64,000 bases of DNA from a bacterium (lineage in GTDB: Bacteria > Oederibacteriota > JAJYGY01 > DAIDJD01), in the NCBI GenBank assembly GCA_035485275.1, contig DATHOE010000034.1, positions 93,677 through 157,676 of the forward strand, given 5' to 3'. Every line of letters begins with the position of its first letter. Position 1 is the first letter of the stretch. The position numbers were made by a program, and so were the translations under genes. Below the pieces are notes generated by a model, which made no database searches, was not told the origin of the DNA, and saw only the letters and a program-made list of their open reading frames with translations. Shown here piece by piece: positions 6,966 to 55,940 of the stretch.

Positions 6966-6976
6966 AGACTCCAACC

Positions 6977-10033: not shown

Positions 10034-10036
10034 GGA

Positions 10037-18590: not shown

Positions 18591-18659
18591 TCCTACCGTA
18601 TAATTGCCCCCGATTTTCCTTGGTACCTAAGGTTTTTGAACCGTTCAGGAGATCGAATC

Positions 18660-19847: not shown

Positions 19848-19994
19848 AAGAAGGCAAGCTGGGGGGCTAGACTGGGATACCCGCTTAAAGTAAAATTACG
19901 CCCAGCTCGTTTTTGTTTCACAATCCCTGCCTGTTCTTCCGCGGCCTTCTTGTTCCACAAGAACCTGCGTGAAAAGGCTGAAAAGGCGACTACG

Positions 19995-20717: not shown

Positions 20718-22684
20718 ACAATCCCTCCCCCGGATTTACGCCCGCCGATCACAAGGGAATACGTCCCAATACGCGGTCATCCGTTCAGGCCGACGGCGCA
20801 CATCTTGGTTCGGAGTTGGCCGACATCCTTCGCTTGGTCCTCAAACATTGGAAGCTGATGTTGTTGGTCCTGCTGGCGGTGGCCTTGTCGGCGCTGGCCT
20901 ACGTGGAGACCGCGGTCCCCATGTGGCAATCCACGGCGACGGTCAAACTGCCGGTGGCGGACACGACCGGCGACCCGATGGAACAGCTGCTGCAGATGAA
21001 TTCCGCCAACGACCCCGTTGAAACCTATATGGAGGTCGCGAAGAGCCTCAATGTCGCTCTTCGCGTTGCACGGGATCTGGATTTGACGAATACGGCCCAG
21101 TTCGGGGGGGCCAAGGATTTGACCGCGGTCGCCGGGGCCCTTATCAACTCATTCTCGGTCACGACCGTGGAAGGGAGCAACATCCTCTCCTTCCGGGTGC
21201 AGGCCAGCGACCGGAGGTTGGCGGCGAGGCTCGCGAACGCGTGGGCGCAGGCGTTCATAGACGTCAACCTCGATTTCAACCGCACAGGGGCCGACAGCCG
21301 CCGTAATTTCATCGAGTCCCAAATGGCCGCGCTGAAGGTGACCCTAACCAACGGGGAAGAGGCCTTGACGAAGCTCGCCCAGCATCAGGGCGTTCTCCAT
21401 CAGGCGGGCGGCGAAACCCAGGATCAAGGCGAATCCCTGATCGCCGAGCTGCAGATGAAGGCCGAGGATCTGGAGATTGAGCGTAGCACGCTGGCGACCC
21501 GCTATAGTCCGAATAATCCTCGCTACAAGGAAGTGGACGCGGAGTACCGTGAAGCCGAGAGGGAGCTGCAACGACGGATGCTCCAAATGCCGACCCAGGA
21601 GATGGATTATTCCCGCTTGGCCCGGGAAGTCAAAGCGAACGAAGCGATGTACGACCTGCTTCTTGAAAAAGACCAGGAAACCAGGATTTCCGAGAATGTG
21701 GACGACAGCGGGATTGTGGTCGTGGACACGGCCCTCCCGGCCAACACCCCTTTTAGTCCGCAAAAAAAGCGGATCGTTTTGTTGGGCCTGCTGGTCGGGC
21801 TTCTGCTGAGTTTTTCCGCGGCATGGAGCCTGGAGCGCTGGCTCGACCAAGTCGGAGGCGAGGCGGAGCTCTTCCGTTTGAGCGGCCTGCCGGCCCTGGC
21901 CATGATCCCGAATTGGCGTTATGAGCTCAAAAGCACCCAGGCGGCCGGCGCGAAGCAGAAAGCCGGAGGCCCCTCCGAAGAAGGGCTTCCCCAGCAGGAA
22001 ATGGAAGGCTTGATCATCATGCCGTCCCTGAAGAACACCTACTACAGCGAGTCCTTCAAGATGCTGCGGACCAATCTGGCCTTCAGCCAGGTCGACAGGC
22101 CCATCAAGACTTTTTGTGTCCTGTCCGCGAACGCCTCCGAAGGCAAGACGACAATAAACTCCAATCTGGCGCTGACGCTGGCAGCGACCGGCAAAAAGGT
22201 GCTGCTGGTGGACGGCGACCTTCGCAAACCGAGGCTGCACAAGCTTTTCGGTCTGAAGGTCGGTTCGGACGTCGGGCTGCCTTTTTTGCTGAACGGGCAG
22301 GCCACCTTGGAGTCCCAGCTGCGCCAGGGTCCGGTTCCGGAATTGTCGATACTGCCCTGCGGGGTGATCGTCCCGAACCCGTCCGAACTCATGGCGTCCG
22401 CCATCCTTGAGAAGATCCTGCAGACTATGCGTGAGCGCTTCGATTACGTGATATTCGACGCCGCGCCTATTCTGCCCGTGACGGACGGCGTGGTGTTGGC
22501 GACGCGTTTGGACGGCGTCGCCCTCGTCGTGAAGCACGAGGGCACCCGCCGCCTCGAGTTGCGGGTGGCCTTGGAGCACTTGGCTTCGGCCAAGGCCCCG
22601 GTCTTGGGCACGATCTTGAATTCGGTGGATATGAGGAAATATTCCTACACCTACGGATACAAAAGCCAATCTTATGGGGATTAG
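20714..22684 (+). CDS. wzc: polysaccharide co-polymerase / BY-type tyrosine autokinase (Wzc-like)
   Basis: N-terminal TM plus coiled-coil chain-length domain; Walker A SANASEGKTT, A' VLLVDGDLRKP, Walker B DYVIFDAAP; C-terminal tyrosine cluster KYSYTYGYKSQSYGD. Confidence 0.85.
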   Translation: MNNPSPGFTPADHKGIRPNTRSSVQADGAHLGSELADILRLVLKHWKLMLLVLLAVALSALAYVETAVPMWQSTATVKLPVADTTGDPMEQLLQMNSANDPVETYMEVAKSLNVALRVARDLDLTNTAQFGGAKDLTAVAGALINSFSVTTVEGSNILSFRVQASDRRLAARLANAWAQAFIDVNLDFNRTGADSRRNFIESQMAALKVTLTNGEEALTKLAQHQGVLHQAGGETQDQGESLIAELQMKAEDLEIERSTLATRYSPNNPRYKEVDAEYREAERELQRRMLQMPTQEMDYSRLAREVKANEAMYDLLLEKDQETRISENVDDSGIVVVDTALPANTPFSPQKKRIVLLGLLVGLLLSFSAAWSLERWLDQVGGEAELFRLSGLPALAMIPNWRYELKSTQAAGAKQKAGGPSEEGLPQQEMEGLIIMPSLKNTYYSESFKMLRTNLAFSQVDRPIKTFCVLSANASEGKTTINSNLALTLAATGKKVLLVDGDLRKPRLHKLFGLKVGSDVGLPFLLNGQATLESQLRQGPVPELSILPCGVIVPNPSELMASAILEKILQTMRERFDYVIFDAAPILPVTDGVVLATRLDGVALVVKHEGTRRLELRVALEHLASAKAPVLGTILNSVDMRKYSYTYGYKSQSYGD

Positions 22685-22758
22685 CGACAAGTGTCGCGGG
22701 CGCAACCCGGTGGCGCCCGTCGACAAGGAGCATTTACAGTTAAGACGAAGGGGCGGCG

Positions 22759-24069
22759 ATGGGATTGTTGTCAAAAAGTGAGATTGGGCCGGCCGGAGTT
22801 TCCAAAAAAAAGAAAATCAGGCCACCTCACTTGAGTTCGGCGGCGGGCAGCGCGGGGCACGCCAGGGAAAAGGCGCTGGTCGTCACCTACAATCACGGGC
22901 TCAACGACCCGCCCATCAAGCAAGCCGCCGAAAGTCTCGCTGCCGAAGCTTACCAGGTCACGCTTTTGCAATCCCCCGTGCGACGGGCTTTTCCGACCGA
23001 GGCCCCGAAGGGGGTGTCGGTCGTGGAGTACTGGATGCCACGGCGCGGCGGGGGATTGAACAGTCTGGTTCGCTGGCTCAGTTTCTGGCTGTCCGTCAAA
23101 CGGGCCCTAAAGGACCTGAAGCCCGACGTCGTGGTCGCGTTCATGCCCCCGAGTTTGGCGGCGATGCCCGGCTTCCTGAAGCGCGGGAATGTGGTCGCCT
23201 GCATCTACGACGTCCCCGCCCTGAACACAATGGGGAGGCTGGACCGATGGATCTTCACGCGCGGGTTCCGCTTTTTGAAGAACGCCGGCGTTACCTGGTG
23301 CAGCGACTATTTCAGGGCGGTATTGACCAAGGATCTGGCCGACCTGAAAACGCTGCCGCTGGTCTGCCATAATTGCCCCCCGAAGGACTACTTCCACGCC
23401 CTACCGGCGGCCAGGGATCCCTGGCTCAGGAGGGAGCTCATCAAACTGGGGGCCCCCCTGAATCCCAAAGGCGGCGGCTGCATCCTGTTGAGGGCTGGCG
23501 CCATCGGCGAGTCCTGCGGGCTGGATGAGACGCTGGAGGCCATGTCCGGACTTCCCAAGGATTACGTTTTTCTCATGATGGGACGCCCGGATCCCGGCTT
23601 TTTGGAAGCGCTCAAAGCCAGGATCAAGGGGATGGGACTGCAGAACCGCGCCTTCGTCTGGAACCTGCCTTCGGATGAAGTGTGGAAGAAAGCCCTGATA
23701 GGGGCCGACATCGGGCATGTGATCCACGGCCCCTTCCAGTCGGCGGCCCTTCAGGAACAGTTTAAGTTGAATTCCAGCCTCTCCAATAACCGGATCTTCC
23801 AGTACATGGCCGCCGGGCTTCCTGTTCTCGCCTATGACGACCCCAGAATGTCGGGCCTGTACAAGGAAGTGGGCTGCTTTCGTTCGGCCCGGATCCTGAA
23901 TCTGCGCGAGGACCTGGAGGCCCATTGGAGGGAACTCGGCGCCTCGGCGGCCCTGCGCCGCCGGCTTGGACTCCGGGCGAGGCGCGCCCACCTGAAAAAG
24001 TATTGCTGGGAATATCAGTTCGCGCCGGTGCTGCAGGCCGTCCACGGACGCGCCGTGGAGCCCGCGTGA
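22759..24069 (+). CDS. glycosyltransferase (GT-B fold, family 1/4-like)
   Basis: C-terminal NRIFQYMAAGLPVLAYDDP-type motif and GT-B organisation; weaker N-terminal similarity. Confidence 0.6.
   Translation: MGLLSKSEIGPAGVSKKKKIRPPHLSSAAGSAGHAREKALVVTYNHGLNDPPIKQAAESLAAEAYQVTLLQSPVRRAFPTEAPKGVSVVEYWMPRRGGGLNSLVRWLSFWLSVKRALKDLKPDVVVAFMPPSLAAMPGFLKRGNVVACIYDVPALNTMGRLDRWIFTRGFRFLKNAGVTWCSDYFRAVLTKDLADLKTLPLVCHNCPPKDYFHALPAARDPWLRRELIKLGAPLNPKGGGCILLRAGAIGESCGLDETLEAMSGLPKDYVFLMMGRPDPGFLEALKARIKGMGLQNRAFVWNLPSDEVWKKALIGADIGHVIHGPFQSAALQEQFKLNSSLSNNRIFQYMAAGLPVLAYDDPRMSGLYKEVGCFRSARILNLREDLEAHWRELGASAALRRRLGLRARRAHLKKYCWEYQFAPVLQAVHGRAVEPA
22804..22811 (+). repeat. A8 homopolymeric tract near the 5' end of the glycosyltransferase gene
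   Basis: tccAAAAAAAAgaaaatc read directly, codons 15-18 (KKKK) of ORF 22759. Confidence 0.85.
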
Positions 24070-24097
24070 CGGCCAGCCGTTCGCTCCCCAGGGGCGC

Positions 24098-25603
24098 ATG
24101 AGAAGCCGCCGCATCTTGTCGGCCTATGGCAGCAGTTTGCTGGGGCTATTCTCCGGCATCCTGACCAATTTTTGGTTCCTCAAGGTCCTGACATCCCAAC
24201 TGTCGAAAAACGAATTCGGCCTTTACGCCTATGTACTGCAAATCACCGCCTATTTCGGTTTTTTGCTGCTCGGCATCGATTTCGCCGCCTCTCGCGACAT
24301 AGCCAAGAATCTGGCGCTGGGGCGCCAGGATGAGGCCTTCAGCGCCTACCAGGTGCTGGGACGTTTCAACAGGATCGCCGGGGCCGTATGCGCCGCCGGA
24401 ACCGTCATCCTGGCCCTGGTGATCCCCCGCCTGGGCTTGCGCGGCTGGGACCAGCCTTCGGTGCTTGTCGGTTTGACCCTGTTGGTGGGGTTCTCCCAGG
24501 TCCTCGGTTTTTTCCAGGTCACGCCCTCCGCGGCGCTCATCGGATCGCAACAGCAATGGATCGTCAACCTCCTGACCACGCTCAGGAGCGTCGCAACCAC
24601 ACTGCTGGCCTACGCGCTGCTTGAGGGCGGGGCCGGGATCTACTGCATCGCGATCGCGGGCGTGGTGACCGCGGCCCTGCACCTTTTGTGTTCCGACATT
24701 CTTTGCCGCAAATATTGCCCGTGGACCGTGGACCCGTCCCGGAAGACGCTGTCGCGCGAGAAGTTCAAGGAGCTGTTCCAGTTCGGGGGCCTGAACCATC
24801 TCGGCTATATGGCCTGGACCGTGGAGTCCACCAGCGACGTCTTCCTGCTGGGCGCCTACGGCGGGCCCGAGGCCGTAGCGATATACGTGCTTTGGTGGCG
24901 CTTTCCGTCCATGCTCATCAGCTTTTGCACCAGGCTGAGCGACGCTGCCTTTCCGACCTGGGTCGAAAGCAGCACCGATCCCGGAAACTCCTCCGCCCGT
25001 CTTTTGGAAAAGGTGGGTATGCTCAGCCTCGGGCTCGGCACCTTGGCCCTTCTCGGGACCGGCCTGTGGCTTCCGAATTTCGTGCGCCTGTGGCTCGGGC
25101 ACGACTATCTGGCCCTGCATCCGCGCTTTTTGGCCCTGGAGATGGGGGCCCTTGTGCTGGTGCGGGTGTTTGGGAACCTGTTCAGCATGTTCTGGCTCTC
25201 CCAGGGCAAGGTGCGCCTCACCACCGGTTTGAGCATCGTGCTCATGGTGACCAAACTGGGGCTGGGCATCGTCTTGACCCGCCTTTATGGCGTGGACGGC
25301 CTCCTGGGTGCCTCGATCATCAACGGCGTCGCCCAGTGCGCCGGCTTGGGCATACCCTTGTACCTGAAAAAGCACTTCAACGTTAAGACGCTGATTTCGG
25401 GCCTGGCGCTCACCGCAGGCGCGCTCCTGCTGGCGATTTGGATCGGCGGGGCCTTCATCCACGACGTTGGACCCTTTGGATTCGGGCTCGGCGTGGCCGC
25501 GACGGCCCTCTTTTGGGGTCTGGTGTGGACCGGGGCCGCCTGGAAGAGCGCGCTCAACAGCAATTTGCGGCAACTTAAGGTGTTCCGGTCCTGGCCCGCC
25601 TAA
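24098..25603 (+). CDS. wzx: Wzx-like oligosaccharide flippase (MOP/polysaccharide biosynthesis protein family)
   Basis: About 500 aa, 12+ TM helices, organisation typical of Wzx/PST family. Confidence 0.7.
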   Translation: MRSRRILSAYGSSLLGLFSGILTNFWFLKVLTSQLSKNEFGLYAYVLQITAYFGFLLLGIDFAASRDIAKNLALGRQDEAFSAYQVLGRFNRIAGAVCAAGTVILALVIPRLGLRGWDQPSVLVGLTLLVGFSQVLGFFQVTPSAALIGSQQQWIVNLLTTLRSVATTLLAYALLEGGAGIYCIAIAGVVTAALHLLCSDILCRKYCPWTVDPSRKTLSREKFKELFQFGGLNHLGYMAWTVESTSDVFLLGAYGGPEAVAIYVLWWRFPSMLISFCTRLSDAAFPTWVESSTDPGNSSARLLEKVGMLSLGLGTLALLGTGLWLPNFVRLWLGHDYLALHPRFLALEMGALVLVRVFGNLFSMFWLSQGKVRLTTGLSIVLMVTKLGLGIVLTRLYGVDGLLGASIINGVAQCAGLGIPLYLKKHFNVKTLISGLALTAGALLLAIWIGGAFIHDVGPFGFGLGVAATALFWGLVWTGAAWKSALNSNLRQLKVFRSWPA

Positions 25604-25775
25604 GGGCCGGCCGGTCCCATAGGTACCCGCGGTTCCCGCGCCCCCCTGAGGCCCCTGGCGACCCGTTTGACCCTATGCTATCGTGTGTGGGTTGCGGTTC
25701 CCGGCGGTGTTTTGTCCGGCCCGCGCGGGGACGGCGGACCGACAGTCCGCATATTTTGGACAGATATGGGAGCAG

Positions 25776-26918
25776 ATGGTGAGAATCGCAATCGCGAGTC
25801 CGGGGCGTTTTCATGTCCTGGATTTAGCGCGGGAATTGCATTCGCTGGGCCACGAGGTGCGTTTCTATTCCTATGTCCCGGGATTTCGTTCAAAACGTTT
25901 TGGACTGCCGGAGGCCTGCGGCCGGTCGATATTCTGGTGGGGCGCTCCCTTGCTCGCGCTGAACAGGGTTCTGGGTTTCCTGGGACTGGGGGCCCCCTTG
26001 AACTCGGTGCAGCGGGCCTGGTGCGACTGGGTCACCTCAACGCGTCTTGAGCCCTGCGACGTGATGATCGCCATGTCCGGTTGTTTCAGCCTGAGCATTG
26101 CCAAAGCGAAAAAACGTTGGAACGCGGTCATTTTGGTCGAGCGCGCCAGCCGCCACATCAACTCCCAGAAGGAGATCCTGGACGAGGTCCACGCCCTCCA
26201 TCCGGGCGCCGCGACCGTGCCCGACGTCGACGTGCACAGGGAACTGAGGGACTACGCCTTGGCGGACCGAATCGTGGTGCCCTCCAGGCACGTGGTGGAG
26301 AGCTTCGTCGAAAATGGGGTTCCGCGGGAACGTCTGTTCCGAAATCCGTTCGGGGTGGACCTTTCGATGTTCTCCCCCACGCCCGTTCCCGCAGGGCCGC
26401 CCACGGTATTGATGGTCGGGACTTGGTGCTACCGCAAAGGCTGCGACCTGCTGGTGGAGGCCTTGCGGGGCCTCGATTTCAGGCTTTTGCACGCCGGCCC
26501 GCTCGGCGACTGCCCTTTCCCCAGCGGGGCAGGCTTTGAGACATTGGGGATTTTGGACCAGACGAAGCTGAAAGAGGTCTATGCCCGGGGCCATATCATG
26601 GCCCTTCCGTCCAGGGAGGAGGGCTTGGCCTTTGTGCAGGCCCAGGCTCTGGCCTGCGGACTGGGCTTGGTCTGCTCCGACCGAACGGGCGGGGACGATC
26701 TAAGGGAGATACTGGAAGATCCCGGCCTGGTGACCGTGGTCAAGACCGGCGACGTCGGGGGACTGAGAGAGGGCCTTCGGCAGGCGATGCGCCTGGCGCA
26801 GTCGAAGAAGGGCCTACGGGACAGCTCCGGGGCTTCCTTGGAAAAGTTGTCGTGGAAGGCCTACGGGCTGCGCTATGACGCTTTTTTGCGGGGCCTGGTT
26901 CCTGCAAAGGCCTTATGA
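25776..26918 (+). CDS. glycosyltransferase family 4 (GT-B)
   Basis: MVRIAIASPGRFHVLDLARELHSLGHEV N-terminus; C-terminal IMALPSREEGLAFVQAQALACGLGLV motif; ATG at 25776. Confidence 0.8.
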   Translation: MVRIAIASPGRFHVLDLARELHSLGHEVRFYSYVPGFRSKRFGLPEACGRSIFWWGAPLLALNRVLGFLGLGAPLNSVQRAWCDWVTSTRLEPCDVMIAMSGCFSLSIAKAKKRWNAVILVERASRHINSQKEILDEVHALHPGAATVPDVDVHRELRDYALADRIVVPSRHVVESFVENGVPRERLFRNPFGVDLSMFSPTPVPAGPPTVLMVGTWCYRKGCDLLVEALRGLDFRLLHAGPLGDCPFPSGAGFETLGILDQTKLKEVYARGHIMALPSREEGLAFVQAQALACGLGLVCSDRTGGDDLREILEDPGLVTVVKTGDVGGLREGLRQAMRLAQSKKGLRDSSGASLEKLSWKAYGLRYDAFLRGLVPAKAL

Positions 26919-27982
26919 AGAAGGGTCCGCTGAATATCCTTTATCTGGGGGATTCCGCGCAGGGCACCACGTCCCTGCAACGGTGCATGGCGCTGCGCTC
27001 GCTCGGGCACCGGGTGACCATGGCGGACAGCGCTCCGCGGAGCATTGGGCTCCTCCATCGCGTCGATGACTGGCTGTACCGAAAGGGTTTTTCGGGGATG
27101 GGCCATCGCAGCCCGGCCACCAACCGGCAAATCCGACAGGAACTAGGGCGTAGGGTTTTCGACCTGCTTTGGATCGATAAGGGAATCTACATCACCCCCG
27201 AGACCATCGCCGCAGCCAAGGCCGCCAATCCCGGTCTGCTGGTTTTGGGCTATTCGCCGGACTACATGGCCGCGCGGCACAACAACAGCCGCTGGTTCAT
27301 CGCCCATTCCGCTTCGTACGACCTCTTCGTGACCACCAAATCTTATGCGGTGGAGTGGCACAAGGCGATCGGGACAAAAGACGTACTTTTTGTCGGCAAC
27401 GCCTACGACCCCGCGACGCACAGGCCGATGCGGATCGCCGCGGCGACGCGAAAGGCGCTGGGCGGGCCGGTTGGTTTCATCGGCTTTTATGAGGCGCCCC
27501 GCGCGGAGGCGGTCGCGTATCTGGGGGCGCACGGTGTTCCGACGAAGGTGTATTCCCCGGGATGGGACACCAGTTCGCCGGCCCCGGGGGTGACCGTCGT
27601 GGCGCGTCCCCTGTTCGGCGACGACTACGCGAAAGCAATCAACGCCTTCGACATCAACCTTTGCTTCCTTCGCGCCATGAACTTGGACGTGCAGACCCAG
27701 CGCAGCGTCGAAATTCCGGCTTGCGGGGCCTTCATGCTGGCCGAGCGGACGGCCGAGCACCAGGGACTTTTTAAAGAGGGTATCGAGGCGGATTTTTTCA
27801 GCAGCAAGGAAGAACTTCTGTCGAAATGCCGTTTCTATCTCGCGAATCCGGCAGTGAGGAAAAGGGTCGCCCTGGCCGGGTACCGGCGTTGCCTCCGTTC
27901 GGGTTACAGCAACCAGGCCAGGATGGAAAAGATGATTGAACACCTTTTGGGGTCCGTGCGGGGACGCGGGAAGGGAAGATGA
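26915..27982 (+). CDS. CgeB-like glycosyltransferase family protein
   Basis: C-terminal RSVEIPACGAFMLAERTAEHQGLFKEG...FFSSKEELLSKCRFYLANPAVRKRVALAGY resembles CgeB/GT1-like domain. Confidence 0.6.
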   Translation: MKKGPLNILYLGDSAQGTTSLQRCMALRSLGHRVTMADSAPRSIGLLHRVDDWLYRKGFSGMGHRSPATNRQIRQELGRRVFDLLWIDKGIYITPETIAAAKAANPGLLVLGYSPDYMAARHNNSRWFIAHSASYDLFVTTKSYAVEWHKAIGTKDVLFVGNAYDPATHRPMRIAAATRKALGGPVGFIGFYEAPRAEAVAYLGAHGVPTKVYSPGWDTSSPAPGVTVVARPLFGDDYAKAINAFDINLCFLRAMNLDVQTQRSVEIPACGAFMLAERTAEHQGLFKEGIEADFFSSKEELLSKCRFYLANPAVRKRVALAGYRRCLRSGYSNQARMEKMIEHLLGSVRGRGKGR

Positions 27983-29415
27983 GCTCGGCCACTTTGATGG
28001 GGGACACGCCCTTATTGCAGGTTCCCGCCGATACCCGGTATTTTAGGCGGATAGGATTCGGCCTCATCGCGGCCTGGGTCCTGGTTCTTTTGGCCGTCCT
28101 ATTCGTGAGCAATTGGTGCACGGAGAAAAACCTCCTGGCCGCGTTGGTTCTGAGTCTCGGTTTGAGCCCTATGGCGGCGTGGTTTTTGGAGGGCCAGGGC
28201 GGCGATTTCCCGATTTTCCAGTTGCATACACTATACTACGGCATGAATTACGGGCTTGCGTCGCTGTACGCCAATCCTCAATTGACCGCGGTGTCGGAAT
28301 CGGACCGCGTTGTCGCGCTGCAGGCGACCGCCATGGGCTTGGGGGTGATGCTGTGGGCGTATTACTTCATCGGGGTACGGTTGTTCCGGCGGATACGGCC
28401 GCTGAAGGTGACAACTCCCGTGCCCTATGAAAATTTTCTCAGATGGGCCTGGGTCATAGCCTTCATCAGCGCCATAAAAAAAATCACCGGAGTGGATTTT
28501 GGGCCCCTGGAGATGCTGGTTTACCAGCCTCTCCTGTACCTGGGGTGGATGGCCAACACTTTTATCCTTGTCGACTTGCTTGTCTACAAAAGGGGGAAGA
28601 AACTGCGGTCGATGTTTTTTTTCGGTTTGTTGATGTTCTTTCAGTTTTTTTCCGCCATCGGATCCGGCCTATTCTCCAACATCCTGATCCTCGTTTTTTT
28701 CATGATCTTCGTTTATTTGAACGTGAAAAAGCGGGTACTCATGAAGGTCATCGTCTTGAGCGTGGTGTTTTTCGTCATTTTGGAGCCGCTGAAAAACGAA
28801 TTTCGCCTGCTGACTTGGGGGCCCAAGAATACGTCCGTCAGCGCGGTTCAAAGGGCGTCGATTTTCGCGGAATTGCTCGTGTCGAAGTACAGCGCCTATT
28901 CTTCCGTCGCATCCACCTCCGTGAACCAGGTCGTCAGCAGGATAGACGACGCCTATACGTTGGCGCGAGTGATGCAGCAGACACCCGACTATGTCCCTTA
29001 TTCGAACGGCAGCACTTACTTATCCTTGCTCACCATTTGGATTCCACGCGCTATTTGGCCCGATAAACCACAAGGGAACATTGGAAATACGTGGGCCCAC
29101 TGGTACGGCCTATTGGACCAGGACGATTTCACGACCTCCTACAACCTGCCTTGGATCGTGGAGTTTTATATCAACTTCGGCTGGGCGGGGATCATCGTCG
29201 GCATGTTTTTGTCCGGAATCCTGTTTGCCTGGCTTGCCGCATTTTTTTGTTTCCCCGGGGCGAGCGCGTTGGAGTATTCGGCGGCGGTTCCCCTGCTTCT
29301 TAACCTTTGGTACGCCGAATCGAATTTCGCCCTGGTTGCCGGCGGGCTCATCATAGGGCTGGTCGTGCTCCGGGTGTACATGAAAGCCATGCCCTACCTC
29401 GCTTTCAAGTTTTGA
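27979..29415 (+). CDS. polytopic membrane protein, putative Wzy-type polymerase / O-antigen ligase-like
   Basis: 478 aa, about 10-12 TM helices with large loop; lower GC than neighbours; position between GT genes. Confidence 0.55.
   Translation: MSSATLMGDTPLLQVPADTRYFRRIGFGLIAAWVLVLLAVLFVSNWCTEKNLLAALVLSLGLSPMAAWFLEGQGGDFPIFQLHTLYYGMNYGLASLYANPQLTAVSESDRVVALQATAMGLGVMLWAYYFIGVRLFRRIRPLKVTTPVPYENFLRWAWVIAFISAIKKITGVDFGPLEMLVYQPLLYLGWMANTFILVDLLVYKRGKKLRSMFFFGLLMFFQFFSAIGSGLFSNILILVFFMIFVYLNVKKRVLMKVIVLSVVFFVILEPLKNEFRLLTWGPKNTSVSAVQRASIFAELLVSKYSAYSSVASTSVNQVVSRIDDAYTLARVMQQTPDYVPYSNGSTYLSLLTIWIPRAIWPDKPQGNIGNTWAHWYGLLDQDDFTTSYNLPWIVEFYINFGWAGIIVGMFLSGILFAWLAAFFCFPGASALEYSAAVPLLLNLWYAESNFALVAGGLIIGLVVLRVYMKAMPYLAFKF
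28476..28483 (+). repeat. A8 homopolymeric tract inside Wzy-like gene
   Basis: gccatAAAAAAAAtcacc read directly (encodes AIKKIT). Confidence 0.85.
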
Positions 29416-29416
29416 C

Positions 29417-30511
29417 ATGAAGATACTCGTCTTCCGGATTGGCCAATTGGGGGACGCCTTGGTGTCGGTGCCCGTCGTCCGGGCGGTCAGGGCCCTGTAC
29501 CCGCAAGCCCGGATGGACCTTTTGACCGACATGAAACGCGATCCCAACAGCGTCTCCGTGGACAAGGTTTTCGACGGATGCGGAATCTTCGAAAACGTTT
29601 TTTTCTACGGGTCGAAGGAGCGTTTCTTGAGGAATCCCCTTGCGCTGGCGGGGACCTGGCTGTCATTGCGGAAAAACGGCTATGACGGCCTGGTATACCT
29701 GGCGCCGAACCAGCGCTCGGGTTTCCAGATGCGCCGGGACGCCCTTGTCTTCCGATCCCTGGGGATCAAACGCATCTGGGGGCTGTCGTCCTCGGGCCGT
29801 ATTCTGCCCTCCTCCAGGCCCTTGCCGCGCCTGCCGGCCGAGGGCCGGACCCTTGCGGACAGGCTCATTCACGACGGATTGCCGATCAGCGTCGATGATT
29901 TCCGCTTCGATTTGGGGATCAGCGACGGCGAATATGGGGCCCTGCGCGGGAAGTTGGGGCAGGCCTGGCCCGGGGAGGGGGTCCGCGTCTACGCGGCCTG
30001 TCCCTTCACGGCCATGCCGGCGAAAAAATGGCCCTTGGGCCGTTACATCGAGGTATTCCGCCGCCTCCACAAGGAACAGGGCTTGAGCCCGATATTTTTG
30101 GGGTCGAAGGCGGATGGCGCGGAGGCTGAGGAATTGCGTCGCGCCATCGGAATCGGTTACAATTTCACTGGAATGAGCATCCGGGAGTCGGCGGCGATCA
30201 TGCGCCGCTGCGATTTTTACCTCGGCAACGACACGGGCACCATGCACTTGGCCGCCGCCGAGGGGCTCCGGTGCGTGGCGGTCTTCTCCGCGCGCACATA
30301 CCCCGGGATCTGGGAGCCACCGGGATCCGGTCACCGGATTCTCCGCACGGCGGTTCCGTGCGAAGGCTGCGAGCTTACCCACTGCGTCGAGCACAAGATG
30401 CAGTGCCTCGACCTCATCGGCGCCGACGCCGTCTATGAGGCCTGTGAGAGCCTTCTTGGAACGGCGGGTTACCCCCCGGGGGCTCAGGGACCTATAGCGG
30501 CAGGCAATTAG
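29417..30511 (+). CDS. glycosyltransferase family 9 (heptosyltransferase-like)
   Basis: MKILVFRIGQLGDAL N-terminus and YLGNDTGTMHLAAA motif typical of GT9. Confidence 0.8.
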   Translation: MKILVFRIGQLGDALVSVPVVRAVRALYPQARMDLLTDMKRDPNSVSVDKVFDGCGIFENVFFYGSKERFLRNPLALAGTWLSLRKNGYDGLVYLAPNQRSGFQMRRDALVFRSLGIKRIWGLSSSGRILPSSRPLPRLPAEGRTLADRLIHDGLPISVDDFRFDLGISDGEYGALRGKLGQAWPGEGVRVYAACPFTAMPAKKWPLGRYIEVFRRLHKEQGLSPIFLGSKADGAEAEELRRAIGIGYNFTGMSIRESAAIMRRCDFYLGNDTGTMHLAAAEGLRCVAVFSARTYPGIWEPPGSGHRILRTAVPCEGCELTHCVEHKMQCLDLIGADAVYEACESLLGTAGYPPGAQGPIAAGN

Positions 30512-30567
30512 CGTTTCATCGCCCCTTCCGCGGATGGATGGGGCGAGCTCCGTTTTTAAGGCGTCCG

Positions 30568-31428
30568 ATGACCAAGCTTCCGATCACCGTTCTCTTGGCC
30601 GTCAAGAACGAGGCGCTGAACCTGCCGAAATGCCTGGATTCCCTCGGGCCGGCCGTGAAGGTCTATGTCCTGGATTCGCAGAGCACCGACGATTCGGCCA
30701 AGATCTGCCGCCGCCGGGGAGCCGAGGTCGTACAGTTCCGCTACAAGAACAGCTATCCGAAAAAAAGGCAGTGGGCCCTGGAGCACTTGAGGATCACCAC
30801 GCCGTGGGTTTTTCTCCTGGACGCGGACGAGATCATAACCGAGGCCCTGTGGTCGGAAATCCGAGAGGTCATCTCGTCGCCGTCGAAGGTCAACGCCTTC
30901 CTCATCAAAAAACAGTTCCATTTTCTGGGGCGGCGCTTCACCCACGGCGGTTTTTCCCACGCAGCCATCCTTCTTTTCAGGAACGGGACGGCCCGTTTTG
31001 AAAGGCTCTTCGACGACGATTCGTCGGATCTGGACATGGAGGTCCATGAGCGTCTGATCGTGGATGGCGCCATCCGCCCCTTAAAAAACCCCGTCAGGCA
31101 CGAGGATTTCAAGAATTTGTCGGCCTATCTCGAGCGGCACAACAAGTATTCCTCCTGGGAAAGCGCGCTGCGCCTTCAATTCATGAAGACGGGGAAATAC
31201 GGGAACGACAGCATCCGAGCGAAGTTCTTCGGCAACGCCCAGGAACGCCGGCGTTTCCTGAAGAAACTCGTCATCCGGGCCCCTTTTGAGCCGTGGATTT
31301 GGTTCATCTACCATTACCTGATCAGGCTCGGTTTTCTTGAGGGAAGGCCCGGGTTTATCGCCTGCGTCATTCGGTCGAATTATATTTCGGACACCAGGGC
31401 CAAAATGTACGAGATGGCGAACAAATGA
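30568..31428 (+). CDS. glycosyltransferase family 2
   Basis: ITVLLAVKNEALNLPKCLDS ... VFLLDADEI (DxD) GT-A motifs; ATG at 30568. Confidence 0.8.
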   Translation: MTKLPITVLLAVKNEALNLPKCLDSLGPAVKVYVLDSQSTDDSAKICRRRGAEVVQFRYKNSYPKKRQWALEHLRITTPWVFLLDADEIITEALWSEIREVISSPSKVNAFLIKKQFHFLGRRFTHGGFSHAAILLFRNGTARFERLFDDDSSDLDMEVHERLIVDGAIRPLKNPVRHEDFKNLSAYLERHNKYSSWESALRLQFMKTGKYGNDSIRAKFFGNAQERRRFLKKLVIRAPFEPWIWFIYHYLIRLGFLEGRPGFIACVIRSNYISDTRAKMYEMANK

Positions 31429-31438
31429 AACCGAGCCG

Positions 31439-32659
31439 TCAGGAGGGCCAGGGTTTCCCGGCCAGCGCGACGCTCAAGCGGGCCGCCTGGGCTATGCCCT
31501 TGGCCGACGCGGCTGTGCTGTAGAGTTTGATGCGTTCGGATGCTTCGGTCGAGTAACGACGCCTGCGGCTTTTGTCGAGGAAAAGGTTCCGGAGGTGTTC
31601 GGCGAGTTTTTTCGCGTCCCCCGCGGCGAATAGTTCCCCTGTTTTTCCCGGCGACACCAAGTCCTGGGCGCAGCCGCATTGCTCGGTGGCGATGACGGGC
31701 AGCCCCATCTGCATGGCTTCGTTCACCACCAGACCCCAGGTCTCAAAGAGCGATGGCAGGACGAAAAGGTCCGCGGCCGCGAAGTAGTCGGCTAGGCGGC
31801 TTTGGTTCACGAAACCCGCCAGGACCGCCCGGCCCGGGGCCAGCCGCCGCGCCTGGGCCCGCAAATCGGGGGCCAGGGGCCCGTCGCCGACGAAAACGGC
31901 CTTCAGTTGGGGTAAATCCGGCAGGAGCGCCAGGGCGTCCAGCAGGGTTTGGGGCGCCTTCCGGTCGATGAGCTTTCCGGAAAAGAGGGCCACCACGTCC
32001 TTGGGGCCGATGCCCAAGGCGCTCCTCAGCGCGGCGGAGCGGGGGCGCCGATTGAAAAGGGCGGAGTCCACGGAATAGGGCGAAAAAACGAGGCGGTCTG
32101 GATCCACGCCGAGCCCGGAAAGATGGGTTCTTGCCCCCTTGCCGATCACCGCGAACGCGTCCACGGACGAATAAATCCGTTTCAAGATCCGGTTTCTCGC
32201 CCAGGATTTCAACGCATAGGCGGCCTTTCCCGGCCCGGAGGAGGCGTCCGCGCCGGGGGAGGGCCCGAATTCCCCACGCATCACCACACCCAGGCCCAGC
32301 CTGTGCGCGGCCCACAGCGTCTGCCATTCAAAGGGCCGCATGTAACCCGGCACCAGCACGCACTGGAAGCCGCCCCGCAGCAGCAAGTCCAGGGGGTGCC
32401 TCAGGCGCATCTGCCAGCGCCGCGTGGGGTCCCTGTCGCGGGACAGAAAGACGCTGGAGTAGCCTTCCAAAAGCGGCACGTCCCAGGTTACGCCGCGGCC
32501 GAAATCCGGGTCCTTCCCGTCGCGCAGGCTGGAGTCGCTGAGGTAGAAAACCGTCGCGTCGATGTCGCGTTCACGGCCAAGCTGCCGCCATACCGGGGCG
32601 AAATACTGAATAGGATGGGTTTGGAATATGGCGAGCTTGATCCGCAAGTTTGCCCTCAC
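31439..32659 (-). CDS. glycosyltransferase family 4 (GT-B)
   Basis: FVLPSLFETWGLVVNEAMQMGLPVIATEQCGCAQDLV motif; probable GTG start at about 32659 (GAAAGG RBS), overlapping upstream stop. Confidence 0.8.
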   Translation of the reverse strand: MRANLRIKLAIFQTHPIQYFAPVWRQLGRERDIDATVFYLSDSSLRDGKDPDFGRGVTWDVPLLEGYSSVFLSRDRDPTRRWQMRLRHPLDLLLRGGFQCVLVPGYMRPFEWQTLWAAHRLGLGVVMRGEFGPSPGADASSGPGKAAYALKSWARNRILKRIYSSVDAFAVIGKGARTHLSGLGVDPDRLVFSPYSVDSALFNRRPRSAALRSALGIGPKDVVALFSGKLIDRKAPQTLLDALALLPDLPQLKAVFVGDGPLAPDLRAQARRLAPGRAVLAGFVNQSRLADYFAAADLFVLPSLFETWGLVVNEAMQMGLPVIATEQCGCAQDLVSPGKTGELFAAGDAKKLAEHLRNLFLDKSRRRRYSTEASERIKLYSTAASAKGIAQAARLSVALAGKPWPS

Positions 32660-34401
32660 GAACCTTTCACGCTGAGGAAATTCCCGAGGCAAAGCGCGTC
32701 GATGTCGTTGCGCAAGTAGCAGGCGACCGCCTGCCGGGGAGTGTCCACCACGGGCTCATTCTCGTTGAAACTCGTGTTGAGGACTACGGGTGTCCCGCTT
32801 AAGCGTCCGAAACGCTCGATCAATGCGTAGTACCGCGGGTTCAGTTCGCTGGTCACCGTCTGCAGGCGTCCGGTGGAGTCCTCGTGGGTCACCGCGGCCA
32901 GCGCCCCGCGTTTCGCTTCCCGGATCCGGACGACATGCATCATGAAGGGGCTGGAAACGTCCTGCTCAAAATATTCGTGCACGGATTCGGCAAGGATGCT
33001 GGGGGCGAAAGGACGGAAGCCTTCCCGGCGCTTGATACGCCGGTTGATGGTGTCCTTCATGCCCGGCCATCCTGGATGCGCCAGGATGGACCGGTTCCCC
33101 AAAGCCCGCGGTCCCCATTCGCTGCGCCCCTGGTACCAGCCCACGATCTTGCCCTGGTTCAGCAGGCCGGCGACCGAGTCGAATAGGGCGTCGTCGTCCA
33201 GGCGTTTGTAGGCCAGGCCCCCCTCACGCAGCGCCGCTTCGATTTCATTTTCCGGGTATTCCGGGCCGAGGTAGGCCTGCATTTGGGCCGGGACCCTGGG
33301 ATTTCCGAGCACCTGGTGCCAGACATGGTAGGCGGCGCCGACGGCGGTGCCGTCGTCGGAGGCCGCGCATTGGATATAGGTCCGGCGGAAGGGGGTGTCC
33401 CGCAGTATCCGGGCGTTGCAGACGCCGTTGAGGGCGCAGCCGCCGGCGGTCACCAGGGCGTCTACCGGAACCCGGCCCGCGAGCCATCCGAGGCTCTGCA
33501 GCACGACCTCTTCAAAACGGGTTTGGCAGGAACGGGCCAGGTCCATCTCGCGCTGGGTGATCGGGTCGCCGCGGCGCCGGGGCGCACCCAATTCCGCCAC
33601 CAAGCGGTCGGTATAAAGGCGCGACAACACCGGGTTTGCGCCGGCGACGGTCGTCGGCATGCGGCCGTCGGTGCCGAGGGCGCTGATATAGCTTTGATCG
33701 AGCTTGAAATCGCCGTTCTTGCCGGCATCTAGGACTTTCCGCATGAACGGCGCGTAGACGTCCTGGCCGTAGGCCGACAGGCCCATGACCTTGTATTCCT
33801 CGCCCACCTGGTCGAATCCGATGAACTGGCAGATTGCGGTGTAAAAGATCCCCAATGAATGGGGCAAGTGCACCCGCTTGAGCACATCGATTTTCGTCCC
33901 ATGGCAATGGGCGTACATCGCCGATACGAAGTCCCCGGAACCGTCGTAGGAAAAACCCGCCGCCTCCTCGAATGGGCTGCAATAGAAGGCGCTGGCGATA
34001 TGGGCCAGATGGTGTTCAACGGGCACCACTTTGAAGCGGCAGGAGCTTTCAGGCTCCCCCAGGGCCTCCGCGACCATGCTTTTCAAGCTGAGGGTGTTTT
34101 TCCTGCGCGCCAGGTTCGCCCGCACATAGTCGAGCGCGCCGGCGGGATGCCCAAGCAGATAGGCCAGCTTGGCGGCCCCATTCGCGCTGTTGTCGTGGCC
34201 GAGGGCGATATAGTCGATGTCCTTGAGCTTGAGCCCCTCCATATCCAATACGCGCCGTAGGGCATGGGCAGGGAAGCAGGAGGCGTGTTTGATCCTTTCG
34301 CCCAGGCGCTCCTCCGCGATGGCGGCCGTGAGGCGTCCGTCCCGCACCAGACAGGCGGACGAATCGAGGTGGAAGAGGTTCAATCCGACGATCGCGGGCA
34401 T
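32656..34401 (-). CDS. carbamoyltransferase (NodU/CmcH family)
   Basis: MPAIVGLNLFHLDSSACLVRDGRLTAAIAEERLGERIKH N-terminal signature and HHLAHIASAF; about 581 aa; start at ATG 34401. Confidence 0.85.
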   Translation of the reverse strand: MPAIVGLNLFHLDSSACLVRDGRLTAAIAEERLGERIKHASCFPAHALRRVLDMEGLKLKDIDYIALGHDNSANGAAKLAYLLGHPAGALDYVRANLARRKNTLSLKSMVAEALGEPESSCRFKVVPVEHHLAHIASAFYCSPFEEAAGFSYDGSGDFVSAMYAHCHGTKIDVLKRVHLPHSLGIFYTAICQFIGFDQVGEEYKVMGLSAYGQDVYAPFMRKVLDAGKNGDFKLDQSYISALGTDGRMPTTVAGANPVLSRLYTDRLVAELGAPRRRGDPITQREMDLARSCQTRFEEVVLQSLGWLAGRVPVDALVTAGGCALNGVCNARILRDTPFRRTYIQCAASDDGTAVGAAYHVWHQVLGNPRVPAQMQAYLGPEYPENEIEAALREGGLAYKRLDDDALFDSVAGLLNQGKIVGWYQGRSEWGPRALGNRSILAHPGWPGMKDTINRRIKRREGFRPFAPSILAESVHEYFEQDVSSPFMMHVVRIREAKRGALAAVTHEDSTGRLQTVTSELNPRYYALIERFGRLSGTPVVLNTSFNENEPVVDTPRQAVACYLRNDIDALCLGNFLSVKGS

Positions 34402-34739
34402 AGTTACTCTTTTTTTGGAGGCCGGGCCCCCAGGCATGGGCGGGGCGTCGCGATAAAAACAGGGGATCCGGGGCTCCGGAAACGAGCGGAGTTCACCCGT
34501 AAACTCGGCGGGGAGCCTGAAAAACAGCCAAACCGCGGGCAGCCGGAATTGGGAGGGTCTCTATGGCGTGTATTTTCGGTTATGGGCCATTTCAATGTCA
34601 ACACCGACTCTGGGCCCTCGCTGGAGGGTCCCCTGGGAAGCCCTTTTTGCCATAGCGCCAGGCGCCTTTGGAAGCTAGGCGTTTTTGTTTCAAGCGCGGA
34701 TGAAACGGACTAGAAGCCCCGACCCATCTTGCGGAGTGC

Positions 34740-41223: not shown

Positions 41224-42186
41224 TCATCTCCAGCCTCGGACAAAGGCCCGCCGGACGTAGCCCTTGAAATCGCCGAGGGTCCACGATCCGACGAGCATGC
41301 GCGGGAGCTCCCAAGGGGAGGTGGATCTCCGTACCGCGCAGGAACGGGTGGTGAAGGCGAAGCGATAGCCGGAATCCTTCAGGGCCAAAATGCTGGCCTG
41401 GTCGTATTGCCCGTTGGGATAGGCGAAGTAGGGGCTCTCCAGGCCCCAGCGCCTCAAATCCAGGTAGGATCCCCGTACTTCGGACCTTTGTGACGCGGGA
41501 GGGCGGCCCGCGAGGATGAAGTGACTCCTTGTGTGTCCGCCGACGGACATCCCGGGAGTGGAGGCCCAGGAACGCACTTCTCCCAGGGACATTATCCGGT
41601 GGCTGGGCCGGGGCCTGGCGGGTACTCCGGCCTTCCCCGATATCTCGCGAAGGGCCCGGGCCTGCGCGCTGGGGGACATCGCTTGAAGGAGGTCCCAAAG
41701 GCGGTCGAAGGTGTCCATCCAGTTTCGGCCCGGTTCCGGGAGGAGGCGGATCCCGCGGTACACAAGGGGAGCCCGGCGGCCGGCGTTCCCGTCTGAGAGG
41801 ATCCGTTCCAGGGCGTCCCAAAGGAATTCCCGTTTCCGGTTCACGTACCCGGTGGCCAGAAAAAGGAGGGCGGGTAGCCTCATTTGGTGCAAGACCGGGA
41901 GTGCCCCGGTCACGTTATCCGAGTATCCGTCGTCGAAGGTCAACATGATCGCCGGACGCCGGCGGGGCTTCATGATGTCCTCGGCTCCTATGACGTCGAA
42001 ATTCTCCGCCAGCCAAACCAACTGGCGCCGGAAGGCTTCCGGCGTCACTGTGATCCCGAAGGGATCCGTTTCGAAGTTCGCGATTCGGTGGTAGCCGAGC
42101 ACCAGGAGGGGAGCTTCCCAGAGGTTCCTGAGGGCGTTCACCGGAAAATGCGAGACACCTTTGATGCGATCCATGGACCAAGACAT
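41224..42186 (-). CDS. polysaccharide deacetylase (NodB-like)
   Basis: AIMLTFDDGYSDN motif and NodB-like organisation. Confidence 0.75.
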   Translation of the reverse strand: MSWSMDRIKGVSHFPVNALRNLWEAPLLVLGYHRIANFETDPFGITVTPEAFRRQLVWLAENFDVIGAEDIMKPRRRPAIMLTFDDGYSDNVTGALPVLHQMRLPALLFLATGYVNRKREFLWDALERILSDGNAGRRAPLVYRGIRLLPEPGRNWMDTFDRLWDLLQAMSPSAQARALREISGKAGVPARPRPSHRIMSLGEVRSWASTPGMSVGGHTRSHFILAGRPPASQRSEVRGSYLDLRRWGLESPYFAYPNGQYDQASILALKDSGYRFAFTTRSCAVRRSTSPWELPRMLVGSWTLGDFKGYVRRAFVRGWR

Positions 42187-43683: not shown

Positions 43684-44796
43684 CTACTTAAAGAACTCGT
43701 TCACCGCCTGAATCACCCGCTCCTGGTCTTCCGCTTTGAGGTCCGCGTAGAAGGGCAGGCTCAGGATCTCCTCATATAGCCCCTCGGTGACCGGCAGAGG
43801 GATGCTGTAGGGGGCGAATTGTGGCTGAAGGTGGTTGGGGATGTAATTGACGCCGCTGTCCACTCCCCGTTCCCGCAGCCAGGCCATCAGGCCGGCCCTG
43901 CGGCCGCGCAGAACCCTGACGACATAAGTGAAAGGGAAGACATCATCTATAGGCCATTTCAACAGACGGAGTCCCGTCAGGGGCCGGAAGGCCTGGTTGT
44001 ACCGGGCGAGGATTTCGAGTTTCCGCGCCTTGAATTGTTCCATGCGGTCCAGTTGGACCAGGCCAATGGCCGCGCTGATGTTGCTCATATGGTAGCGCCA
44101 TCCGACCGTCTCCACCTGGTATCTCCACTCGTCCTGGGCCCCCATGCGCTGCCAGCGGTCCCGGCTGATTCCCAACACCCTTTTTTTGCGGGCCAATGCG
44201 GCCACCGCGGGGTCCGAGGTGACGATCGCCCCGCCCTCACCGCAGGTGATGTTCTTGATCGGGTCGAAGCTGAAGCAAGTGATCTGCCCGAACGAGCCGA
44301 TACGACGGCCGCGGTGGGTGGATCCGAAGGCATGGGCGGCGTCCTCAACCAGAACGGTTCCGTGCCGCTCGGACAGCTCCAGGAGCCGGTCCATGTCCGC
44401 GGGGATGCCGCAGTAGTGGACCGGGACGATGGCACGGGTGCGGGCGGTCACCTTGCGGGCGACATCTCCGACGTCCAGATTCAGGGTTTCCGGTTCCACC
44501 TCGCAAAAGACCGGGGTGGCTCCGGCCGCACGGATGGCCTGGATCGTGGCGCAAAAAGTGAGGGAGGGTACGATCACCTCCGCGCCGGCCGTGATGCCGG
44601 CGGACTCCAAGGCCAGATGCAGTGCGGCGGTGCCTGAAGAGACCGCCACGGTTTCGCGTCCGTCGAACAAGCTCCGCAGGCGCTCCTCGAAATTCAGCAC
44701 CTGTTTGCCGAAGCCCAGCCATCCGCTGGAAAGTACTTCGGCGACGGCCCCGGCCTCAAGCGCGCCGGTGCTTGGTTTGGAAACTGGAATCGTCAT
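43684..44796 (-). CDS. DegT/DnrJ/EryC1/StrS-family PLP-dependent sugar aminotransferase
   Basis: PLP-lysine context SFDPIKNITCGEGGAI, about 370 aa. Confidence 0.85.
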   Translation of the reverse strand: MTIPVSKPSTGALEAGAVAEVLSSGWLGFGKQVLNFEERLRSLFDGRETVAVSSGTAALHLALESAGITAGAEVIVPSLTFCATIQAIRAAGATPVFCEVEPETLNLDVGDVARKVTARTRAIVPVHYCGIPADMDRLLELSERHGTVLVEDAAHAFGSTHRGRRIGSFGQITCFSFDPIKNITCGEGGAIVTSDPAVAALARKKRVLGISRDRWQRMGAQDEWRYQVETVGWRYHMSNISAAIGLVQLDRMEQFKARKLEILARYNQAFRPLTGLRLLKWPIDDVFPFTYVVRVLRGRRAGLMAWLRERGVDSGVNYIPNHLQPQFAPYSIPLPVTEGLYEEILSLPFYADLKAEDQERVIQAVNEFFK

Positions 44797-49551: not shown

Positions 49552-50607
<1,056 letters not shown>

Positions 50608-50608
50608 G

Positions 50609-53370: not shown

Positions 53371-53410
53371 AAGCCGCGCCCATCCGTTGTTTTAGGAGTC
53401 CGGGATTCCA

Positions 53411-53983: not shown

Positions 53984-54000
53984 CGTTCCAGGGACAGGGC

Positions 54001-55917: not shown

Positions 55918-55940
55918 GGCGTCCGGCAAGGCAGGGGCGG

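Follow-up and report, generated by a model that had tools for sequence, protein, structure and literature searches.

A class III carbamoyltransferase gene in a polysaccharide export locus of an uncultured bacterium and its probable role in glycan carbamoylation

A carbamoyltransferase gene in a glycan locus

A stretch of 64,000 nucleotides (nt) of contig DATHOE010000034.1 (assembly GCA_035485275.1, positions 93,677 to 157,676 of the forward strand; hereafter the window), from an uncultured bacterium of the Oederibacteriota, carries on its minus strand (32656-34401) a gene which, judged by its sequence, is a genuine and intact carbamoyltransferase of the TobZ/NodU/CmcH type (class III). As this class III enzyme has intact residues and its gene lies in a polysaccharide export locus, upstream of a same-strand gene for a glycosyltransferase of family GT4, a carbamoylated sugar in the product of the locus is a reasonable inference. 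With the acceptor read from this context, we consider it probable (about 0.7) that a sugar of the exported polysaccharide receives a carbamoyl group from this enzyme before it is flipped.

The gene occurs once in the window. In the list of open reading frames (ORFs) it forms part of a longer minus-strand ORF (32656-34437, 593 amino acids (aa)), of which the ATG at 34401 is Met13; an alternative start at the upstream ATG (34437) adds 12 residues. The start at 34401 is preferred, because the match to the Pfam N-domain profile begins there at position 2 and because the resulting 581-aa product is the exact protein found in public databases. The identical protein is already present in NCBI, JGI, ENA and Logan, and its public record is named 'MAG TPA: carbamoyltransferase C-terminal domain-containing protein [bacterium]'.

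Both Pfam domains of the family, Carbam_trans_N (PF02543; E 2.3e-48, 165.9 bits with a cutoff of 24, profile positions 2-345 of 346) and Carbam_trans_C (PF16861; E 2.2e-66, 223.1 bits with a cutoff of 27, profile positions 1-168 of 170), are matched far beyond chance. The protein ends 4 residues past the second match and has no transmembrane-like segment. Its G+C content at third codon positions (GC3) of 0.81 is like that of the glycan locus and below that of the housekeeping flanks (0.89-0.96).

Catalytic residues and structural relatives

A search of all PDB sequences gave near end-to-end alignments with solved O-carbamoyltransferases. The best match was 7XB6, for which we use the name VtdB as given in the Foldseek output (E 4.8e-89, query residues 12-578 against 35-595 of 597), followed by NovN (E 3.4e-84, alignment stopping at residue 566 of 687), GdmN (E 1.7e-83, stopping at residue 565 of 682) and TobZ (E 5.4e-75, full length). 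An AlphaFold2 model built on 74 homologues (mean predicted local distance difference test score, pLDDT, 87.4; predicted template modelling score, pTM, 0.89) was compared with the PDB using Foldseek, which placed VtdB first (template modelling (TM) score 0.87), then GdmN (0.84), NovN (0.83) and TobZ (0.80). The next tier, comprising Kae1, TsaD and HypF, matched the N-terminal half only, with TM scores of about 0.35.

In GdmN, the YrdC-like domain forms carbamoyl-AMP and the Kae1-like domain transfers the carbamoyl group, with iron bound by H133, H137, D156 and D333 and with H27 serving as catalytic base (PMC9633730). The four ligands correspond in the alignment to H130, H134, D153 and D349 of the window protein, the predicted metal ligands, which are invariant in 120/120 homologues. 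The C-terminal half contains the conserved blocks EWGPRALGNRS (residues 428-438), KRREGFRPFAP (457-467), THEDSTGRLQTV (505-516) and LNTSFNENEP (541-550); the first two as such, and the others as THxDxTxRxQTV and NTSFN, are common to VtdB, NovN and GdmN, and most of their positions are invariant across the 74 homologues. By these alignments, the metal site and the carbamoyl-AMP domain appear intact.

The original prediction of a NodU/CmcH-type enzyme is therefore confirmed by both Pfam domains, the full-length alignments and the intact catalytic residues. A hydrolase, which the prediction had named as the outcome that would speak against it, and likewise a pseudo-enzyme, were considered and rejected, since all catalytic motifs are present, the metal ligands do not vary among the 120 homologues and the C-terminal blocks are largely invariant. 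The expected affinity to NodU and NovN was found in part: the match to NovN is full-length, whereas the score against the NodU equivalog model NF041651 (138.8 bits, E 2.5e-40) falls far short of its cutoff of 1000. Orthology to NodU was accordingly rejected; no nod genes lie nearby.

Among the characterised enzymes, TobZ (tobramycin/nebramycin 6''-O-carbamoyltransferase; PDB 3VEN and others) has the same two-domain architecture without extras (576 residues against 581), the same metal-ligand tetrad and the same motifs in the carbamoyl-AMP domain, with TM scores of 0.80-0.83. However, the identity is about 32%, and the TobZ acceptor is an aminoglycoside antibiotic, made in a biosynthetic gene cluster, and not a polymer. 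VtdB, the venturicidin O-carbamoyltransferase (PDB 7XB6/8HIU; TM scores 0.87/0.84, root-mean-square deviation 3.3), is the best match in both sequence and structure, but it tailors a macrolide glycoside, has the dipeptide H-D at the catalytic position and is not reported in a polysaccharide locus. The homodimeric antibiotic enzymes GdmN, NovN and Asm21 are similar in fold (TM scores 0.83-0.84), and their metal ligands map one to one, yet their acceptors are of another class. GdmN also has about 100 further residues at its C-terminus, which form a dimerisation domain (D574-L674; PMC9633730). As this domain, shared by GdmN, NovN and NolO, is missing in the window protein, its architecture is TobZ/VtdB-like.

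NodU and NolO, the Nod-factor 6-O and 3/4-O carbamoyltransferases, belong to the same family and modify a sugar hydroxyl of an oligosaccharide. Over residues 8-579, the NolO protein of NGR234 shows 37.9% identity, but it is longer (680 aa), with a C-terminal extension and an H-D motif (FMHDGAA). Moreover, the NodU/NolO genes lie in nod operons beside nodIJ and not in a polymer export locus.

A displaced histidine, the presumed catalytic base

The acceptor site of the window protein differs from that of the characterised enzymes in one respect. Its N-terminal motif reads N-L-F-H-L-D-S-S-A-C, and the presumed catalytic base, H11, stands one residue ahead of the aligned histidine position, so that the catalytic histidines of GdmN (H27), NovN and VtdB (H35) lie opposite L12. 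In TobZ the corresponding H14 belongs to an H-D motif, whereas H11 of the window protein belongs to H-L-D. H11, D13 and C17 do not vary in any of the 120 homologues, the majority of which read H-P-D.

The H-x-D or H-x-N spacing is also found in relatives of 44-62% identity (loci L002-L053 and L054:8995-10734 of our set of relatives, in which L numbers denote individual loci). They belong to Planctomycetota, Gemmatimonadota, Alpha- and Gammaproteobacteria, Acidobacteriota, Actinomycetes and Bacteroidota, and include an enzyme from a plasmid of a cultured Bradyrhizobium. This spread across several phyla places the window protein in a large sub-branch marked by one inserted residue at the acceptor site. 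The classical H-D occurs in NolO of NGR234, in a Paludisphaera plasmid enzyme and in a relative from Omnitrophota.

It is conceivable, although we lean towards doubting it, that this phylum-spanning branch, which was found in surface-glycan loci where examined, is dedicated to polysaccharides and that carbamoylation is a widespread but largely overlooked decoration of the exopolysaccharides and O-antigens of environmental bacteria. Another reaction, e.g. carbamoylation at the nitrogen of amino sugars, might even take place in the altered pocket.

The H-D-type enzyme of Paludisphaera borealis is followed on its plasmid by genes for an SxtJ-family membrane protein and a DUF5989 protein (L056:9876-10560), an arrangement like that of saxitoxin clusters. 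It also adjoins exosortase and tyrosine-kinase genes. This enzyme is a member of a different sub-branch with different partners.

Genomic context of the gene and its homologues

The gene had been predicted to lie inside a polysaccharide locus, and this is borne out by the Wza, Wzc, Wzx, Wzy-like and WecA-like genes and the many GT4 and GT2 genes around it. The Wzx/Wzy-type toolkit is complete, with initiating transferase, flippase, polymerase (Wzy-like, weakly matched), exporter, autokinase and glycosyltransferases.

The homologue search yielded at least 8000 clusters at 90% identity (E<=1e-20), hundreds of them at about 60% identity to the window protein. All relatives with called-gene or record context (9/9) lie among glycan genes, and in the seven with about 60% identity and called genes GT4 genes surround the carbamoyltransferase without exception (7/7). 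These relatives also carry, in various combinations, GT9, Wzy_C, Wzx, WecA/WbpL-like transferases, epimerases of nucleoside diphosphate (NDP)-sugars and exosortase EpsH. One of them, L050 (about 62% identity), has mixed surroundings, in which a halogenase-like gene lies upstream and further genes, too, are unrelated to glycans.

Pfam analysis covered 113 ORFs situated no more than three genes from the carbamoyltransferase in 23 species-level genomes of different lineages. GT4-type domains were found in 22, NDP-sugar dehydratases/epimerases in 10, AsnB-like amidotransferases in 8, Glyco_trans_1_2 in 5, and GT2 and flippases in 4 each. The plasmid of the cultured Bradyrhizobium sp. ISRA443 combines seven glycosyltransferases, a GT2, a carbamoyltransferase (44.7% identical), gmd, fcl, Wza and Wzc. 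Many bacterial phyla thus commonly have carbamoyltransferase genes in their glycan clusters, and that of the window, already annotated, is typical both of its very large family and in its setting.

Several further neighbours recur. An AsnB-like glutamine amidotransferase (Asn_synthase and GATase domains) is encoded directly upstream, on the same strand, in many relatives (e.g. L002:6081-7985, L022:5967-7922, L033:5998-7962, L034:6011-7966 and L052:5103-7004); the window has no such neighbour. Exosortase (EpsH/EpsI) genes lie near some homologues (L051:13909-15510, L060:9850-11730, L056:1699-2682 and 6835-7638). A GT9-like gene is found less than 5 kb from the carbamoyltransferase in 5/9 close loci, namely the window, L002 (3780-4883), L051 (2569-3672), L052 (3979-5025) and ERZ1426829, which is reminiscent of the heptosyltransferase context of WapO in Pseudomonas.

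WapO is the closest functional analogue, likened here by context and not by sequence: a carbamoyltransferase-family gene among surface-glycan glycosyltransferases. The 7-O-carbamoyl heptose (HepII) of the Pseudomonas lipopolysaccharide core is chemically established, its carbamate giving a reported 13C signal near 158-159 ppm (PMC8005017), and wapO/PA5005 (PSPTO_4992), a carbamoyltransferase-family gene, is located in the core cluster next to the glycosyltransferase gene wapH (PMC8005017; PMC7168646). WapO is still called a 'putative' Hep-II 7-O-carbamoyltransferase (PMC8005017). The two contexts differ in that WapO is encoded in a core-oligosaccharide cluster with heptose kinases, whereas the window holds a Wzx/Wzy/Wza/Wzc locus of the exopolysaccharide or capsule type, and no heptose-synthesis or heptose-kinase genes were found in it. 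A carbamoyltransferase gene has also been described beside the Leptospira rfb locus (bioRxiv 10.1101/771931).

Literature searches for carbamoylated O-polysaccharides and exopolysaccharides gave mainly papers on the Pseudomonas core and on Nod factors; two candidate papers, on Xanthomonas and Cronobacter, mention only arginine/pyrimidine carbamoyltransferases. The assertion of the original prediction that O-carbamoylation is uncommon outside Nod factors and antibiotics is accordingly true of proven chemistry only. It does not extend to gene content, because the homologues are numerous (at least 8000 clusters, many phyla), their glycan context is recurrent and there is a precedent in WapO of the Pseudomonas core.

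Proposed acceptor and alternative explanations

The enzyme is a soluble class III carbamoyltransferase, presumably cytoplasmic and acting on oxygen. By analogy with TobZ and GdmN, its YrdC-like domain would convert ATP and carbamoyl phosphate into carbamoyl-AMP. In the Kae1-like domain, with a metal held on H130, H134, D153 and D349, H11 would act as the base that deprotonates a sugar hydroxyl, to which the carbamoyl group would then be moved. The genomic context suggests that the acceptor is most likely a repeat-unit sugar, linked to undecaprenyl diphosphate and still facing the cytoplasm. Carbamoylation would then precede flipping by Wzx, polymerization by Wzy and export by Wza/Wzc, leaving an O-carbamoyl group on the exported polysaccharide, and the GT4 enzyme would act in the step immediately before or after it.

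The same product would arise if a nucleotide-activated sugar (e.g. a GDP- or UDP-sugar made with the participation of gmd, DegT or epimerases) were carbamoylated first and then transferred by the GT4. The lack of a membrane segment in the soluble carbamoyltransferase is in line with such an order, as are the NDP-sugar dehydratases/epimerases that are frequent direct neighbours in relatives (including L050, and gmd-fcl in Bradyrhizobium) and the GT4 that recurs just downstream. On the other hand, the characterised members cited, which modify Nod factor, tobramycin, novobiocin and ansamycins, act on assembled scaffolds (PMC9633730). In the window, moreover, gmd is 15 kb away from the carbamoyltransferase. 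We regard this order of events as improbable, though it is the most serious competitor of carbamoylation on the lipid-linked repeat unit.

Alternatively, the acceptor might be the amino group of a sugar produced by DegT or by the polysaccharide deacetylase, which would give a ureido sugar and not an O-carbamate. The wider Kae1/TsaD superfamily does transfer to nitrogen, in t6A synthesis, and the locus contains both the DegT aminotransferase and the polysaccharide deacetylase, with no dedicated N-acetyltransferase domain in general scans. In addition, the shifted histidine shows that the acceptor site is unlike that of the characterised enzymes. However, all solved class III enzymes recovered (VtdB, TobZ, NovN and GdmN) are O-carbamoyltransferases, the amino-sugar genes lie 7-10 kb away, and many relatives occur in loci where no aminotransferase was noted, so that we give N-carbamoylation little credence.

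Least credible of all is an incidental position of a gene whose product tailors a small molecule (a secondary metabolite or a signalling lipo-oligosaccharide) or a nucleic-acid base: although the closest solved structures are antibiotic-tailoring enzymes, a phage member of the family carbamoylates 5-hydroxymethylcytosine (PMC8670742) and the halogenase-like gene of L050 stands in a mixed neighbourhood, the window scans found no polyketide synthase or non-ribosomal peptide synthetase, nod or phage genes around the carbamoyltransferase, which has glycan genes extending more than 15 kb on either side, and the glycan context recurs in relatives across phyla.

Several points weigh against carbamoylation of the exported polysaccharide by the route preferred here. 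The displacement of the catalytic histidine by one residue relative to TobZ, GdmN, NovN and VtdB means that the role of H11 as the base is assumed, and the literature examined yielded no enzyme of the H-x-D clade with a biochemical characterisation. With two flippases and some 44 kb of glycan genes in the region, more than one polymer is a candidate for the modification. Finally, the tight junction between the carbamoyltransferase and GT4 genes is not conserved.

The junction with the downstream GT4 gene

The carbamoyltransferase and GT4 genes are co-directional and no more than 8 nt apart with either of two possible GT4 starts. The original prediction described them as translationally coupled through an overlapping GTGA. 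The GTGA is indeed present, the junction reading GTGAAAGGTTCGTGAGGGCAAACTTG on the coding strand, and its GTG is in frame with the GT4 ORF. Nevertheless, this GTG (32659; 406 aa) is only one of two candidate starts, which makes the overlap of the two genes a possible one: the public gene call on the identical contig uses TTG at 32647 (402 aa, 8-nt gap). By its sequence, the TTG start has the better putative ribosome-binding site, with GAGG 5 nt upstream, as compared with AAAGG just 3 nt upstream of the GTG.

Searches with tblastn and blastp in 48 genome loci found no orthologue of this GT4 beside the carbamoyltransferase. In a more sensitive comparison, GT4s of the same type (44-46% identity), at most two genes from the carbamoyltransferase, were found solely in the two closest relatives, L057 and L058, whose carbamoyltransferases are 81-82% identical to that of the window. 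In L057 (82%) the related GT4 gene (46%) is convergent, and in L058 (81%) it (44%) lies behind a Glyco_trans_1_2 gene. Relatives of about 60% identity carry different GT4s, mutually related (29-68% identity among themselves), 1-3 genes downstream.

A conserved, translationally coupled carbamoyltransferase-GT4 module was therefore rejected: the two closest relatives retain the association but not the coupling. The recurrence of the pairing mildly supports consecutive steps, and the two genes are probably co-transcribed, their products acting on neighbouring steps.

The minus-strand run to which the pair belongs has the order Acyl_transf_3, GT87-like gene, 338-nt gap, carbamoyltransferase, GT4. 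A consensus scan found in the gap a promoter-like site, TTGACA-18-GAAAAT, the only sigma-70-like hit in 7 kb, although one such hit is at chance level (1.9 expected from shuffling). This suggests, no more than tentatively, that carbamoyltransferase and GT4 form a two-gene unit beginning here. Rfam searches at gathering thresholds gave nothing in the whole window, and thus no RNA element in the gap. At its other end the two-gene unit converges with a plus-strand operon running from GT4 to GT2 (18636-31428); the convergent stop codons (31428-31439) are separated by 10 nt, with no terminator-like hairpin between them.

Organization of the surrounding region

The features of the region are listed in Table 1.

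Table 1. Coordinates of the carbamoyltransferase gene, its predicted functional elements and the surrounding glycan genes (window positions; a single number is given where only one position was listed)
Feature	Position	Strand	Remarks
Glycan-biosynthesis region	15544-59569	both	about 44 kb; Pfam and NCBIfam scans
Acyl_transf_3	15544	-	
GT4	18636		start of the plus-strand operon (18636-31428)
Wza	19950		PF02563, 1.2e-20
Wzc	20714		Wzz/GNVR/AAA_31 domains; kinase domain passes TIGR01007 (170.5 > 108)
GT4	22759		
Wzx	24098		PF01943, 4.4e-14
GT4	25683		
Glyco_trans_1_2	26915		
Wzy-like	27979		weak assignment: PF14296 25.0 bits, just below the 26.6 cutoff; NF046084 E 5e-18, below cutoff; 9 predicted transmembrane-like segments
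GT9-like (heptosyltransferase-like)	29417-30511	+	
GT2	30538		
GT4	31439-32647	-	Glycos_transf_1, E 6.2e-32 (Pfam); directly downstream of the carbamoyltransferase
GTGA overlap	32656-32659	-	stop TGA 32658-32656 overlaps candidate start GTG 32659-32657
Carbamoyltransferase	32656-34401	-	581 aa; stop TGA 32658-32656
YrdC-like C-terminal domain	32671-33171	-	residues 411-577; PF16861; predicted to form carbamoyl-AMP from ATP and carbamoyl phosphate
Kae1-like N-terminal domain	33331-34392	-	residues 4-357; PF02543; predicted to transfer carbamoyl to an acceptor hydroxyl
Predicted metal ligand D349	33357-33355	-	codon checked
Predicted metal ligand D153	33945-33943	-	codon checked
Predicted metal ligand H134	34002-34000	-	codon checked
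Predicted metal ligand H130	34014-34012	-	codon checked
H11-L12-D13	34363-34371	-	presumed catalytic-base His; within clade motif N-x-(F/Y)-H-x-D-S-S-A-C
Promoter-like site	34572-34601	-	
GT87-like	34740	-	
Acyl_transf_3	36094	-	
Acyl_transf_3	37431		
WecA-like initiating transferase	38741		PF00953, 8.1e-31
Methyltransferase	40371	-	
Polysaccharide deacetylase	41224-42186	-	
GT4	42228	-	
DegT aminotransferase	43684-44796	-	1.2e-107
GT2	44793	-	
GT87-like	47109-48491	-	PF09594; polytopic membrane protein
GT2	48726		
gmd	49552		passes equivalog cutoff (545 > 415)
Second MOP flippase	50609-52114		
Protein with eight transmembrane segments	52105-53370		no family match; possibly polymerase or ligase
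Right-handed beta-helix protein	53431-55917		828 aa
GT4	55482		
GT4	57186		
Acyl_transf_3 (fourth)	58469	-	

Altogether the region encodes nine GT4-type and four GT2 transferases, one Glyco_trans_1_2, one GT9-like and two polytopic GT87-like transferases. Modification and precursor genes comprise four Acyl_transf_3 O-acyltransferases, the methyltransferase, the polysaccharide deacetylase, DegT and gmd. The best NCBIfam matches of the Wzy-like protein and of the GT4 downstream of the carbamoyltransferase are to exosortase-associated families, below threshold, and no exosortase was found in the window.

The first set of genes is followed by a second glycan module (49552-59569) with gmd, a flippase, the protein with eight transmembrane segments, the beta-helix protein, two GT4 genes and the fourth Acyl_transf_3; hence the region may encode two different polymers. 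The second GT87-like gene (47109-48491) has a G+C content of 0.458 and a GC3 of 0.525, whereas the locus has about 0.55-0.65 and the flanks about 0.70 G+C. Such a low value points to a piece of foreign DNA that was inserted recently among the glycan genes.

The housekeeping flank (3380-6178 and 14719-15456) contains genes for a bioF-like aminotransferase, a bioD-like dethiobiotin synthetase (AAA_26), BacA/UppP and TatC. The position of the undecaprenyl-diphosphatase gene BacA/UppP (5267-6178, minus strand) beside a large glycan region that depends on undecaprenyl phosphate may not be a coincidence. An alternative-complex-III-like set on the plus strand (6884-14482) encodes a 1049-aa molybdopterin/4Fe-4S subunit, an NrfD-type membrane subunit and a cytochrome c protein. 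On the opposite strand lies an ORF of 1493 aa (6962-11443), most likely a high-GC artefact.

Biological significance

For the window itself, the analysis confirms an existing automatic annotation and is not a discovery; only the H-x-D sub-branch, apparently dedicated to glycan loci, might merit further work. If the polymer is carbamoylated, the exported polysaccharide of this uncultured bacterium would bear a neutral substituent that contains nitrogen and forms hydrogen bonds. Recognition by phages or tailocins, hydration, and resistance to glycanases could be influenced by it. As carbamoyltransferase genes are routine in the glycan loci of many phyla, while proven carbamoylated polysaccharides are few, structural glycobiology may under-report the carbamoyl group.

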